Source: a virus (taxonomy: Duplodnaviria > Heunggongvirae > Uroviricota > Caudoviricetes). Taken from it: a stretch of 48,410 nt of DNA. Of the stretch, positions 40,726 through 44,737 are shown piece after piece. The notes below the pieces were generated by a model, which ran no database searches, had not been told where the DNA came from, and was given only the letters and a program-made list of their open reading frames with translations. Where the stretch lies: the IMG/VR virus record IMGVR_UViG_2531839667_000010, positions 1 through 48,410 of that record; one strand, written 5' to 3'. Each line of letters begins with the position of its first letter. Position 1 is the first letter of the stretch. Made by a program: the position numbers and the translations under genes.

Positions 40726-41291
40726 GCGTTAGTTTCTCCACAACCAGAAGCAATCGACGCCACGACGCCCGGAGCTGCACACTCGCGGGCGTTACTCTTT
40801 TCCGGCGCACAAAAAACACGAAATAACAGTGTTAAATGCTCCTGCCACTTCGCCATTACTTGGTAGCTGTTCTCTTCGATTTGCTCACGCTCAGCCTGGT
40901 CAATAACTCCATCAGCAGTTGCCTTGCGTAAGTACTGGGAATGCTTGCCAATCCATTCTATTGACTCCATCAGCCGCTGATTAATGTCACCAATGACCAC
41001 CAGCGGCACAAACACCCCATTACTACGACGGGCTATTGCATCTGTTACATGCCTGGTACCACTGGCATCCTGTAAAACCATGGCCCACTCAAGTGGAAAA
41101 ATTTGATCCCCACCGCTACGCAGTCTGTTATGCAATTGATCTTTTGCTGGGGTGATATCATCAGATTTATACAAACCAAGAATTTCTGCTGCTTCCTCAT
41201 AGCCATGAGGTAAATCAGCAATCGTTCTTCGTATTGCTGCCACCAGCCATGCTGGTTGTTTATCAACTTTCCATTCAGGTTCTTTACCCAC
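40722..41291 (-). CDS. Putative CII-like early regulator
   Basis: 189-aa ORF immediately after cro in the rightward operon; family assignment is positional and from a weak recollection of the CP76-type CII family. Confidence 0.4.
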   Translation of the reverse strand: MGKEPEWKVDKQPAWLVAAIRRTIADLPHGYEEAAEILGLYKSDDITPAKDQLHNRLRSGGDQIFPLEWAMVLQDASGTRHVTDAIARRSNGVFVPLVVIGDINQRLMESIEWIGKHSQYLRKATADGVIDQAEREQIEENSYQVMAKWQEHLTLLFRVFCAPEKSNARECAAPGVVASIASGCGETNA

Positions 41292-41318
41292 GGTTAATTC
41301 CTCATTTCTGTGGTGTTT

Positions 41319-41516
41319 TTATGCCGCAGCACTGTTAGTCTTTTGATATAAAGACACGTCAACTTTCAGTTTCCCGTTAGTAATTTTTTCTAACTGGTAC
41401 GCTCGGCCTTCAGGAATAATCTCAGGCCACTCTGAAACAGACGGATGCTTAATACCTAGGGCTTCGGCGGTTTTACAAACTCCGCCGAAATAATTAATCA
41501 CGTCGGATTTCCGCAT
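41319..41516 (-). CDS. cro: Cro-like repressor
   Basis: 65-aa HTH protein divergent from cI across an operator-rich 95-bp spacer. Confidence 0.75.
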   Translation of the reverse strand: MRKSDVINYFGGVCKTAEALGIKHPSVSEWPEIIPEGRAYQLEKITNGKLKVDVSLYQKTNSAAA

Positions 41517-41548
41517 TTCTGTCTCCCGTTAAATTACGTTAAGCAGAA

Positions 41549-41611
41549 ATGTAGGATATCCAACATACCAATGTCAAGAATCCTACATGGGCATGTGGTA
41601 GGATTGCCTAC
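41549..41611. promoter_or_regulatory. OR operator cluster with divergent pR/pRM
   Basis: 18-bp palindrome ATGTAGGATATCCAACAT (41549-41566) plus degenerate copies at 41571-41588 and 41593-41610. Confidence 0.6.
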
Positions 41612-42265
41612 ATGATGAACATGAGTGATCGTATTCGCCAAAGGCGAAAAGAACTGAACCTGACACAACAAGCACTGGCTGATTTGACTGGTGTGAACCG
41701 TGTCACGGTTACTGGATGGGAAAAGGACGACTACCAACCAAATGGAGCCAACCTTCAAGCCCTAGCCAACGCACTTAAATGCGATCCTCTGTGGCTTGTT
41801 AGCGGAAAAGGCTCGCCTGAACCAAAGATAAATCTAAAACCTGAAATATTCGCAGTTAAAAAAGTCCCCCTCATCTCGTGGGTTCAGGCGGGTTCATGGA
41901 CAATGACGGAGCCTGGTGTCAGGAAAGAAGATGCTGAAGAGTGGGTTTATACTACCGCCATTGTATCAGAAATGGCATTTGCACTACGGGTCCGTGGTGA
42001 TTCAATGACCAATCCCCTCGGCTCACCATCGATACCAGAAGGTTCTATCGTTATCGTAGAGCCAGATATTATTGATACAGAGTGTATTAACGGAAAAATC
42101 GTTGTTGCCCATATCAATGGTGGGCAAGAAGCGACACTCAAAAAATTTGTTGAGGACTGGCCGAACAGGTATCTCGTCCCACTAAATCCTAACTATAAAA
42201 CTATTGAATGCGGTGAGAACTGCAGAATAGTTGGTCTTGTCAAACAAGTAATAATGGATTTTTGA
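41612..42265 (+). CDS. cI: CI-type prophage repressor (HTH plus S24 LexA-like autopeptidase)
   Basis: 217 aa; N-terminal HTH (LTQQALADLTGV), C-terminal RVRGDSM Ser nucleophile and downstream Lys. Confidence 0.9.
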   Translation: MMNMSDRIRQRRKELNLTQQALADLTGVNRVTVTGWEKDDYQPNGANLQALANALKCDPLWLVSGKGSPEPKINLKPEIFAVKKVPLISWVQAGSWTMTEPGVRKEDAEEWVYTTAIVSEMAFALRVRGDSMTNPLGSPSIPEGSIVIVEPDIIDTECINGKIVVAHINGGQEATLKKFVEDWPNRYLVPLNPNYKTIECGENCRIVGLVKQVIMDF

Positions 42266-42286
42266 CACATCTTCCTCACTATCGCA

Positions 42287-42311
42287 AAACCGGGGTATCC
42301 CCGGTTTTTTT
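42287..42311 (+). terminator. Rho-independent terminator after cI
   Basis: Stem ccggggtatccccgg followed by T7. Confidence 0.7.
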
Positions 42312-42327
42312 ATGAGCCTATCTTTTT

Positions 42328-42385
42328 ATGTAGGATAACCAACATAAACTCTTGACACTCACATGTTGGATATCCTACATTTGTT
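42328..42385 (+). promoter_or_regulatory. OL operators and pL promoter
   Basis: Two copies of the 18-bp operator (ATGTAGGATAACCAACAT 42328-42345; ATGTTGGATATCCTACAT 42363-42380) flank TTGACA (42352-42357); the second operator overlaps the -10 region. Confidence 0.6.
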
Positions 42386-42445
42386 TTTAGAGTAGCCGCC
42401 GGTGGCGTATGAATGACCGGATGATTCGCTGACAGAAAACTTAGG

Positions 42446-42829
42446 TTGGGGGTAGAGGTTTACATGAATCATTTATTCACATGCTCATTTTGCGGAGCAA
42501 CCGAACTGGGAGCGATAAAGATCGTCGCAAAAGGTGGTAAGGACGAACCTGCCATCTGTTCGGAATGCGTAGTCACATGTGTAGAAAAAATGATCCTGAC
42601 TAAAAAATCAGAGGCTGAAAAACCAACCTCTGATAACGAAATAATATCAGTCGATAAAAAACTATTTAAAGAGCTTCTTCAGCTTGTCCTCAACCATCCT
42701 GATTTCGGAAGTAAGCTGGCTGCTGTTGACATTGATAGTAGCTCCACATCGACAAGTGAAACTTTTGTTCGACTTGAGCCAAGCGATTTTCTTCTTCGTC
42801 TTAGTGCCGCACTTAGGGCATGCGGGTAA
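42446..42829 (+). CDS. ClpX-type C4 zinc-finger protein, first gene of the pL operon
   Basis: 127 aa; N-terminus FTCSFCGATELGAIKIVAKGGKDEPAICSECVVTC resembles the ClpX zinc-binding domain (CSFCG...ICxEC) as I recall; GAGG Shine-Dalgarno 6 nt before the ATG; no AAA+ domain. Confidence 0.55.
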   Translation: MGVEVYMNHLFTCSFCGATELGAIKIVAKGGKDEPAICSECVVTCVEKMILTKKSEAEKPTSDNEIISVDKKLFKELLQLVLNHPDFGSKLAAVDIDSSSTSTSETFVRLEPSDFLLRLSAALRACG

Positions 42830-42942
42830 CGTAATTTCCTGGTTATCAAAAGCGCCCATAAACATCCCTCTTGGTTGTGTGAGAACACCAAGATACCACC
42901 GCGCCTGATGTGGTTAAAAGCAGGCTAAAGCAATAACAAGTA

Positions 42943-43003
42943 ACTCCCTGTTCTGGCGGCCCGGTGTTTTCCCGTGTATTTCCGGTAACCGCCAGCCTTT
43001 TTC
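42943..43003 (+). terminator. Terminator-like hairpin after the first pL gene (tL1-like position)
   Basis: Stem ctggcgg/ccgccag around a 29-nt loop, followed by CCTTTTTC. Confidence 0.3.
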
Positions 43004-43171
43004 AGGGCACAACAGAAAAGGGCATCACCGGGCGACGGGCTCATAACCCAATCCACCCGGGCAAAAAGAAAGCGGTCTCTGCAAGCCGCCGACCAATGCA
43101 GGTGCCCTTCTCTGTTGTGTATGGAGAAACTAACTTTTTAGCGCCGGTGCAGAGGCGTTGAGGAACCGAGA

Positions 43172-44089
43172 ATGAACAATCCGTTTTTCAAAAATATGTT
43201 GGTGTATCGCATTAGTCGCGATTTCACCATCAACCAGGAAGAGCTGGAACAGCAGCTTGAACTATTTCGCTTCACTCCATGCGGTAGCCAGGATATGGCA
43301 AAAACCGGTTGGGTATCACCACTTGGTCAGCTGTCAGATCGCTTGCATCACACTGTCAATAATCAAGTGTTGTTGGTTATTCGCCGGGAAGAAAAAATAC
43401 TGCCATCTCCTGTCATTGCTGAAGAACTGCGCAAGCGTGTGTCGCGTCTGGAATCCGATCAGGGGCGTCGCCTCAAAAAAACTGAGAAAGATTCGCTGCG
43501 TGATGAAGTGTTGCACTCCCTGCTTCCTCGGGCGTTCTCCAAAAACTCGACTGTTAGTTTGTGGATCAACGTCACCGACGGTCTGATCATGGTTGATGCA
43601 GCCAGCGCTAAACGTGCCGAAGACTCACTGGCCCTGCTTCGTAAAACTCTCGGTTCTCTCCCGGTGGTACCGCTGACTATGGAAACGCCGATCTAACTAA
43701 CTATGACCGAATGGGTTCGTTCCGGTAGTGCGCCTGCTGGCTTTGGCCTGGGTGATGAAGCCGAACTGAAAGCTATTCTTGAAGATGGCGGTATTGGACG
43801 CTTTAAAAAACAGACTCTGGTCAGTGACGAAATTCATGTGCATCTGGAAGCTGGCAAAGTAGTTACAAAGCTGTCTATCGACTGGCAACAGCGCATTCAG
43901 TTCGTTCTTTGCGATGACGGCAGCATCAAACGCCTTAAGTTCTCTAATGAGATTACAGAACAAAACGACGATATCGACCGTGAGGATGCGGCTCAGCGGT
44001 TCGACGCTGACTTTGTTCTGATGACCGGCGAGCTTATCTCTCTCATTAACGGATTAACAACCTCTCTCGGCGGCGAAGCCAAGCGATAA
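43172..44089 (+). pseudogene. rdgC: RdgC-like recombination-associated protein, interrupted by one in-frame TAA
   Basis: Listed ORFs 43172..43696 and 43703..44089 are in the same frame, separated only by TAA at 43694-43696; together they resemble full-length RdgC as I recall ([11 protein letters not shown]..., ...[19 protein letters not shown]...). Confidence 0.75.
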
Positions 44090-44170
44090 ACACCAGGCAA
44101 CAATTACCCCCATAAGCATGGGTTGGGTTGCTGCACGCTAAATTCAGCAATTCATTAATTTAATGGCGCG

Positions 44171-44737
44171 GTGCAGCGCGCCAATATGGAGAAAACCATG
44201 AGCTACATTCAGACATTATCCGGCAAACATTTTAATTACCTCGATATCCAACAGGACGATATCGTGATCGAGGATATTGCTACCGCGTTGTCTCATATCT
44301 GCCGCTTTGCAGGGCATCTTCCTGAGTTTTACAGTGTCGGCCAGCATAGCGTTTTAACCAGCCACCTCGTTCCGCAGGAGTTTGCATTAGAAGCACTGCT
44401 TCATGATGCTGCTGAAGCCTACCTGCAGGACATCCCCTCCCCACTTAAGCGCCTGCTTCCGGATTACCAGGCAATCGAAGCTCGTGTGGACGCAGCCATT
44501 CGGCAGAAGTTCGGTCTACCAACTGAGCAACACCCAACCGTGAAATATGCCGACCTGGTGATGCTCGCCAGCGAACGCCGCGATTTTGAGATTGACGAAG
44601 GTTCCATTTGGCCATGCCTCGAGGGAGTTGTCCCAACGGATTTATTCATTATCAACCCAGTTCGTCCTGGCCAGTCATACGGCATGTTCATCAATCGCTT
44701 TAACGAGTTGATGGAGCAGCGCCAATGCGCCGCATGA
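44171..44737 (+). CDS. HD-domain phosphohydrolase
   Basis: His and His-Asp motifs (SVGQHSVL..., ALLHDAAEAY); likely true start at ATG 44198 (GGAG Shine-Dalgarno). Confidence 0.7.
   Translation: MQRANMEKTMSYIQTLSGKHFNYLDIQQDDIVIEDIATALSHICRFAGHLPEFYSVGQHSVLTSHLVPQEFALEALLHDAAEAYLQDIPSPLKRLLPDYQAIEARVDAAIRQKFGLPTEQHPTVKYADLVMLASERRDFEIDEGSIWPCLEGVVPTDLFIINPVRPGQSYGMFINRFNELMEQRQCAA

Follow-up and report, generated by a model that had tools for sequence, protein, structure and literature searches.

Two reading frames overlap on opposite strands directly 3' of the pL promoter of a lambdoid E. coli prophage of the SfV/mEp460 type, which raises the question of which of them is a gene and what the other one then represents. 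The prophage is carried by the stretch of 48,410 nucleotides analysed here, which we call the window. On the plus strand of the window a reading frame extends from TTG 42446 to the stop codon at 42827–42829, and a minus-strand ORF of 67 aa with CPKC and CRCG motifs (42662–42865) overlaps the 3' end of this frame by 168 nt, as described in the initial annotation. That annotation had read the plus-strand ORF as a free ClpX-type zinc-binding domain (ZBD) in the position of lambda N and had suspected that one of the two ORFs may be spurious.

The plus-strand gene and its setting

The early region around the two ORFs contains the following features.

41319–41516, opposite in direction to the repressor: P22-type Cro
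41549–41566 and 41596–41613: two ATGTWGG-N4-CCWACAT palindromes in the cro-cI gap (pR/pRM)
41612–42265, plus strand: S24/HTH repressor
42328–42345 and 42363–42380: two OL operators, exact copies of ATGTWGG-N4-CCWACAT, overlapping or flanking pL
42352–42381, plus strand: pL promoter, TTGACA-18-TACATT (promoter scan, 10/12)
42391–42429, plus strand: conserved first ~40 nt of the pL transcript (el_i)
42430–42893, no strand: 464-bp insertion relative to Flotzy and Eeyore, bearing both ORFs (alignment)
42464–42829, plus strand: 121-aa early protein (Pfam zf-C4_ClpX, PGAP name, PHROGs, Shine-Dalgarno sequence)
42464–42598, plus strand: its ClpX-like ZBD, aa 1–45, followed by a linker
42644–42826, plus strand: its tail, aa 61–121, antisense to the minus-strand gene
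42953–43003, plus strand: terminator-like hairpin with U-run, 3' of the plus-strand ORF (fold −24.3 kcal/mol, z = −2.1)

The operator pattern has four matches in the window, a number reached in 0 of 100 shuffles. Since copies of it overlap the promoter and two more lie between cro and cI, pL is evidently controlled by the repressor, and the placement of the plus-strand gene as the first gene after pL is borne out by both the promoter scan and the operators. A YmfL/CII-like gene runs in the same direction as Cro, opposite to the repressor, and pL itself lies beyond the terminator of the repressor gene. Just 3' of the repressor gene, a CCGGGG-TAT-CCCCGG sequence between an A-run and a T-run (42290–42316) resembles a bidirectional terminator and could also end transcripts of the minus-strand gene; it is absent from the terminator-scan list.

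The beginning of the pL transcript (el_i) is 92–100% identical across loci with different first pL genes, and also in Flotzy and Eeyore, which have no such gene and in which just 8 nt separate the conserved leader blocks in place of 42430–42893. An Rfam search of positions 41000–44500 at E≤1 gave one chance-level match and none for the leader blocks. We considered whether these blocks could be HK022 put and rejected this, as they show no similarity to the HK022 early region.

Within the SfV/mEp460-like group, the slot from pL to the hairpin varies in content. It is essentially empty in Flotzy and Eeyore; SfV has orf33 there and mEp460 has minus-strand genes, and in other prophages the slot is taken up by genes of the AlpA-like, P22_Y8K6-like or coiled-coil kind. 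The plus-strand protein has no arginine-rich stretch, a point on which we agree with the initial annotation (3 Arg in 121 aa, without a cluster), and Pfam gave no match to an N or Nun family. We see no sign of a conserved antiterminator at this site and do not retain its description as the N position.

The terminator-like hairpin noted earlier behind the first gene is present, with its stem at 42953–42995, and was not listed by a strict terminator scan. In Flotzy the sequence of the stem differs and the pairing is kept. We found no link between the ZBD protein and read-through of the hairpin at 42953–43003. Beyond it, just 5' of rdgC, lies a long-stem structured RNA candidate (43005–43120; −52 kcal/mol, z = −3.9), the 55-nt core of which (43008–43062) recurs with ~91% identity in over 60 phage records (SfV, SfII, SfIV, mEp460, Stx2c phages); the candidate has no Rfam family match and no similarity to HK022 put. 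The rdgC gene itself (43172–44089) is identical to that of E. coli AH04 except for a nonsense change at 43694 (GAA to TAA, Glu175 to stop), because of which it appears as two ORFs in the window.

The plus-strand gene likely starts at ATG 42464, which is preceded at a distance of five nt by a Shine-Dalgarno sequence (SD; AGAGG, 42454–42458). The resulting CDS of 121 aa is the one annotated by RefSeq/PGAP in E. coli AH04, Nissle 1917 and others, with the product name “ClpX C4-type zinc finger protein”. Its N-terminal ~45 residues do fit a ClpX-type C4 domain. The cysteines C7, C10, C32 and C35 (counted from ATG 42464) form a CxxC...CxxC pattern of zinc ligands that aligns with the cysteines of ClpX, and the Pfam family zf-C4_ClpX (PF06689) matches with E=7.6e-6 and 26.2 bits, missing the gathering threshold of 27 by 0.8 bit. 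All six matches with E<1 in a PDB sequence search are ClpX N-termini, and the sole NCBIfam match is the ClpX equivalog, at the N-terminal positions 6–74 of its 418. Three relatives (P0001, P0009, P0010) bear a precomputed PF06689 assignment. Searches of Pfam and NCBIfam yielded no match to an AAA+ module, in line with the description of a ZBD without its ATPase. In PHROGs, phrog_20296 covers the protein over its full length and phrog_5259 its N-terminus. An AF2 model computed with a 9-sequence alignment had low confidence in the ZBD, and a pLDDT below 57 in the tail.

The module is present in 39 of 5426 complete E. coli genomes. A phage-resistance gene called pr has been described from prophage 3 of Nissle 1917 (PMC5987069); we rejected its identification with our locus, since the primers for pr have no match in the window or at the Nissle locus.

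The antisense zinc-ribbon gene

Comparison with relatives places the real start of the minus-strand gene, which we call ZR, at the second ATG of the ORF, at 42859. The gene and the elements around it are listed below.

42597–42634, minus strand: intrinsic terminator of ZR, a 12-bp stem at 42607–42634 with a T-run, inside the linker of the plus-strand ORF (terminator scan)
42662–42859, minus strand: ZR, 65-aa zinc-ribbon protein with a C-terminal helix and cysteines C14/C17/C36/C38 (conservation, dNN/dSN, AF2)
42866–42925, minus strand: conserved region upstream of ZR (alignment of 15 variants)
42866–42872, minus strand: SD of ZR, AAGAGGG
42869–42875 and 42887–42893: inverted repeat upstream of ZR
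42890–42898, minus strand: TGGTATCTT, a possible extended −10 upstream of ZR
42896–42925: CCAC..GTGG and GCCTG..CAGGC repeats, interleaved and pseudoknot-like

To avoid ascertainment via the plus-strand protein, we sought homologues in DNA collections with ZR itself as the query. This search returned 33 viral loci and four genomes (Shimwellia, Ewingella and two Photorhabdus), with 21 distinct DNA variants from prophages of Escherichia, Kluyvera, Serratia, Ewingella, Shimwellia and Photorhabdus. All of them are exactly 65 codons long and 61–100% identical in amino acid sequence to the ZR of the window. C14, C17 and C38 are invariant in 21 of 21, and C36 is changed in a single variant (C36Y in L038, 3001–3195). 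A 22nd sequence, which is not among the 21, is frameshifted by a one-base deletion (L042, 3001–3194). These two damaged copies belong to near-identical E. coli-type variants, and because they are carried, ZR appears to be dispensable for carriage; the plus frame is open in both and longer in L042.

For the analysis of selection we used OLGenie-style counts on the 54 codons that are exactly antisense to each other, with each change classed in both frames. Across the 21 variants, dNN/dSN of ZR was 0.18–0.19 (bootstrap 0.11–0.30). Over the same codons, ZR is better conserved than the plus frame in 198 of 210 pairs, with an identity of 76% versus 65% and 23 versus 10 invariant columns. Judged by these sequence comparisons, ZR is a strongly selected gene and the best-supported one of the locus. 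The choice between a real and a spurious ORF, as it had been posed, is therefore misplaced: of the two, the antisense ORF is better conserved, and the plus frame is kept open, so that neither is spurious.

ZR comes with signals of its own. An SD of the form AAGA(A/G)GG is found 6–7 nt 5' of the ATG in most variants, and the intrinsic terminator, 28 nt past the stop codon, folds with −22 kcal/mol (z = −5.1; equalled by 0 of 200 shuffles). A hairpin of different sequence occurs at the same offset in 15 of 15 variants folded. Upstream, ~60 nt are kept in most of the 15 aligned variants, including those from late regions, and become weaker or diverged in the most divergent ones (L047, Photorhabdus). 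A sigma-70 consensus scan called no promoter in this region, despite the wide conservation of TGGTATCTT; from the latter we infer that ZR probably has its own promoter. The interleaved-repeat element (42894–42925) immediately precedes ZR in most variants. At some loci a second copy lies ~1 kb away at another minus-strand insert (L011, 5509–5533; L037, 3957–3985), and the element is retained in Flotzy and Eeyore, both of which lack ZR.

At the protein level, a phmmer search of 1.84 billion representatives at E≤1e-3 gave 293 matches to ZR, mostly of 62–76 aa and aligned end to end, with the consensus FDxxxIxIPCPxCGxKTxKxIxWLKxNxxxxCxCGxxIxxDS followed by a helix. From the single sequence, AF2 predicted a zinc ribbon with a C-terminal helix at a pLDDT of 75; the plus-strand protein, modelled with the 9-sequence alignment, reached only 52. 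ZR is a basic protein and its C-terminal helix is amphipathic. Comparisons of ZR with Pfam, NCBIfam, PADLOC, PHROGs and the PDB sequence profile remained below cut-off or pointed to generic zinc ribbons, and the PADLOC models, which cover anti-phage defence, gave no match for either ZR or the plus-strand protein. The most recurrent weak match of the family is YnfU (NF038384; 17 bits for ZR and 24.9 for the best relative, cut-off 36), and the Lar restriction-alleviation family (PF14354) reached 17.3–17.5 bits against a gathering threshold of 28.6. In Pfam, then, the expected zf-C4_ClpX match of the plus-strand translation is found just under its threshold, and ZR falls below every curated cut-off. 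Foldseek searches of PDB and BFVD returned generic zinc ribbons and an uncharacterised phage protein (TM 0.74); the best viral match is to an uncharacterised protein of 78 aa. The ynfU gene itself, in the Qin prophage of E. coli K-12 (L059, 8806–8976), is oriented against the neighbouring phage lysis operon.

The gene itself is hardly ever annotated. A protein-database search with ZR gave only one entry, which is uninformative since gene callers favour the longer plus-strand ORF. A tblastn search of GenBank phages found only one record, in which the gene is unannotated, and ZR has been called in only one GenBank record. None of the RefSeq records inspected annotates it (0 of 30 among the E. 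coli records listed, of 41).

The main reading of the initial annotation, that the plus-strand ORF is the sole real gene, encoding a ClpX decoy or an antitermination factor, and that the antisense ORF arose by chance, can draw on the ZBD similarity, on the position as first gene after pL with a hairpin behind it, and on RefSeq, which annotates this strand only. We give it almost no credence in view of the conservation of ZR, the selection on it, its SD, its terminator and its 293-member family; the variability of the slot, which may even be empty, in related phages, and the lack of an arginine-rich motif and of any N or Nun family match, likewise speak against it.

The genomic contexts of more distant ZR relatives, which no called gene overlaps, bear on a second alternative. 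At three loci (L063, L066, L068) the relative is a lone gene next to the immunity region, where it faces the early operon; the one in L068 lies between cII-like and O-like genes. In L070 it stands at a divergence point, where it heads an operon diverging from the leftward early operon. ZR could thus be mainly a counter-transcript that damps read-through from pL (or from late transcription) by convergent transcription and RNA pairing, with the peptide of secondary importance. Such a role would fit the repeated orientation of ZR-family genes against the early operon, the position of one relative at the place of lambda oop, and the recurrence of the upstream element at other minus-strand inserts. 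It would not lead one to expect the strong purifying selection on the amino acids of ZR, its essentially invariant cysteines, or a protein family that reaches far beyond DNA similarity, and we consider its chances slim.

A tail shared by unrelated plus-strand proteins

The homologues of the plus-strand protein fall into two classes. The first has the ZBD only and consists of stand-alone prophage proteins of 66–82 aa from Salmonella and others (P0009, P0010); the Salmonella homologue occupies the same slot, as the first gene after the repressor. The second has the tail only (P0004–P0008), with the last ~65 residues in common and unrelated N-termini, which are an AlpA HTH, a Phage_P22_Y8K6 domain, a coiled coil, or almost nothing. 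The same tail is joined to at least seven unrelated N-termini in all, and each of the four N-terminal types that we scanned constitutes a complete stand-alone PHROG family (5259, 2790, 1273, 1744). Nearly all genes bearing the tail or the ZBD are the first gene 3' of an S24 repressor, and one type follows lysis genes. At every such locus the minus-strand ORF is intact, with the same stop and an ATG equivalent to 42859. As far as sequence comparison can tell, the plus-strand ORF is a chimera, formed by a ZBD fused to a tail of ~60 residues that is largely the antisense image of ZR.

Two simpler readings were tried and rejected. The plus-strand ORF is not wholly spurious, given its ZBD-only homologues, its SD and the Pfam signal. 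Nor is it the only real gene, as its “homologues” have only the ZR-overlapping part in common.

Pairs of ZR and an antisense ORF also occur in another phage context (L014, 583–861, and L045–L051). There the module lies 3' of lysis genes and 5' of HNH and terminase genes, and its plus-strand ORF of ~90 aa has its own ribosome-binding site.

When distant ZR relatives without an overlapping called gene are translated in antisense, the same tail motifs appear (“VVRLEPTDRLRRLAAALGAG”), and we take the apparent conservation of the tail to be a by-product of ZR for this reason. The plus-strand residues opposite the cysteines of ZR alternate between Ala and Thr (GCA/ACA) while ZR retains Cys.

The openness of the plus frame is a different matter. 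Our controls were antisense frames of real single-coding genes from the same loci, and only 1 of 114 such windows is stop-free in all sequences, compared to 0 antisense stops over ZR in 21 variants. The Leu and Ser codons of ZR vary among synonyms and are never TTA, CTA or TCA, against backgrounds of 15.6% and 13.1% (rough p~0.01). Every variant provides an SD and a start codon for the plus frame, which either belong to the ORF itself or come with the upstream domain fused to it. Since the frame stays open and always has a start codon, we conclude from the sequences that the tail is translated.

The amino acid sequence of the tail gives a weaker signal. The plus frame has a dNN/dNS of 0.48 over the 54 codons (bootstrap 0.31–0.77). 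Whole control genes range from 0.60 to 1.09, and 7.5% of 54-codon control windows have values of 0.48 or below (empirical p≈0.075); selection on the tail at the amino acid level would thus be at most weak, and it is not significant. The synonymous sites of ZR are not depressed (dSN 0.69). In late-region and Photorhabdus variants, the tail occurs almost alone, as an ORF of ~88–92 aa with its own SD and ATG. Five plus-strand codons beyond the stop of ZR, I-[STA]-[VI]-[DE]-K, show third-position variation, most clearly at Ile, Asp/Glu and Lys. The in-frame fusion has persisted through swaps of the N-terminal domain in which the linker stayed the same.

Under true dual coding, the tail would be a domain with a function of its own, such as an antidote to ZR, a partner of it or a shared tail for regulation or degradation, and selection would attach it to any upstream gene for that reason; the pair would then form a toggle between lysogeny and lytic growth at the level of both protein and RNA. 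This would account for the tail being found almost alone with its own start signals, for the plus frame being open in all variants, for the patch of third-position wobble outside ZR, for a dNN/dNS lower than in most controls, and for a fusion that has outlasted N-terminal swaps. However, the selection signal is weak, AF2 confidence for the tail is low, the antisense of ZR relatives without a plus-strand ORF yields the same motifs, and dSN shows no constraint on synonymous sites. On this evidence we regard dual coding as unlikely, though a serious contender. The narrower claim that the tail's sequence matters seems doubtful to us, with a chance that is nonetheless appreciable.

A reading in terms of an obligate sense/antisense protein pair, acting as a mutually exclusive switch, would also make the tail functional, for instance by neutralising pre-existing ZR. 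ZR would be supplied by the silent prophage, and the firing of pL or of late transcription would silence it by convergent transcription and at the same time make the tail. If true, this would account both for the open frame of the tail and for its attachment to any upstream gene; we rate it as improbable.

Proposed roles and comparison with known systems

The reading that we favour, with moderate confidence, is that of an antisense pair of translated genes, an autonomous and strongly selected ZR and a plus-strand gene encoding a ZBD chimera. The two conserved ORFs lie on complementary strands, each with translation signals, and are convergent with respect to pL. ZR would be a small autonomous gene directed against pL, equipped with a ribosome-binding site, an intrinsic terminator and probably a promoter of its own, and would account for most of the sequence conservation at the locus. 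Members of its family would typically stand alone, facing the early operon and adjoining the immunity region of temperate phages. The plus-strand gene would be the first gene of pL; its ZBD is probably homologous to the stand-alone prophage proteins of 66–82 aa, and its frame would continue through the antisense of ZR, such that the sequence of the ~60-residue tail is largely dictated by the latter. Because the genes are convergent and complementary, their expression is expected to be mutually exclusive: the repressed prophage would make ZR, and the ZBD protein would appear after the firing of pL.

ZR is most likely a nucleic-acid-binding protein that acts in the lysogenic state. For the ZBD part, the most likely role would be that of a ClpX N-domain mimic, titrating adaptors or substrates that depend on the N-domain. 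This idea builds on the finding that the isolated ZBD of ClpX dimerises and that, supplied free in trans, it inhibits adaptor-dependent degradation by ClpXP in vitro, namely the RssB-dependent degradation of sigma-S (PMC7226468). By this analogy, a role of the ZBD protein as a ClpX decoy, as suggested in the initial annotation, is plausible; a search of the literature for phage-encoded ClpX zinc fingers or ZBD-only proteins found nothing. The ZBD-only protein, which occurs in the probiotic strain Nissle 1917, would then be a candidate for a phage-encoded factor that modulates the traffic of ClpXP adaptors.

The annotation of the plus-strand gene was already known. What appears to be new is that the antisense gene is genuine and dominant, that the shared “domain” is its shadow, and that the shadow frame is open. 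The “C-terminal domain” of phrog_20296 would accordingly be largely an antisense image of ZR, and the same applies to proteins named “helix-turn-helix transcriptional regulator” or “ClpX C4-type zinc finger protein”. Zinc ribbons of the ZR type are widespread, and the contexts examined suggest a role in the lysis-lysogeny region of temperate phages that has so far gone unstudied. The locus also offers a clean natural test case for antisense overlap, with one frame strongly selected and the other open in 21 variants and at least seven N-terminal contexts.

Among known systems, the ZBD of ClpX (PF06689; PDB 1OVX, 2DS5) is the closest to the plus-strand protein, with which it has in common the CSFCG...ICxECVxxC pattern, four Cys ligands and matching spacing. 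The plus-strand protein differs in lacking the AAA+ module, in a 3-residue insertion between the knuckles, and in its score just under the Pfam cut-off. The likeness to lambda N and HK022 Nun is one of position only, as the first gene after pL: the protein has no arginine-rich motif or family match, the gene in this slot is missing in relatives, and the leader has no similarity to the put region of HK022.

ZR, for its part, resembles YnfU of the Qin prophage (NF038384, PF23499) in being a small prophage zinc ribbon directed against a neighbouring phage operon; it differs from it in length and in its C-terminal helix, and scores far below the cut-off (17 versus 36 bits). Phage morons, such as lambda bor, are small extra genes with which ZR has in common its own terminator, its orientation against the surrounding operon and its absence from the same site in related genomes, in the form of the 464-bp insertion relative to Flotzy and Eeyore. 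Unlike morons, ZR is embedded in antisense in the ORF of an upstream early gene instead of lying between genes, and its own promoter is only putative. Lambda oop and P22 sar are non-coding counter-transcripts of lambdoid early operons; transcription of ZR would likewise converge with the early operon near the immunity region, but ZR encodes a strongly conserved protein.

Antisense overlapping, or overprinted, protein genes have been tested with statistics of the OLGenie type. As in those cases, the codons are here exactly antisense-aligned, with one frame strongly selected and the other open. In contrast to them, the weaker frame is not a fixed second gene: at least seven unrelated upstream genes have taken it up as their C-terminal tail.
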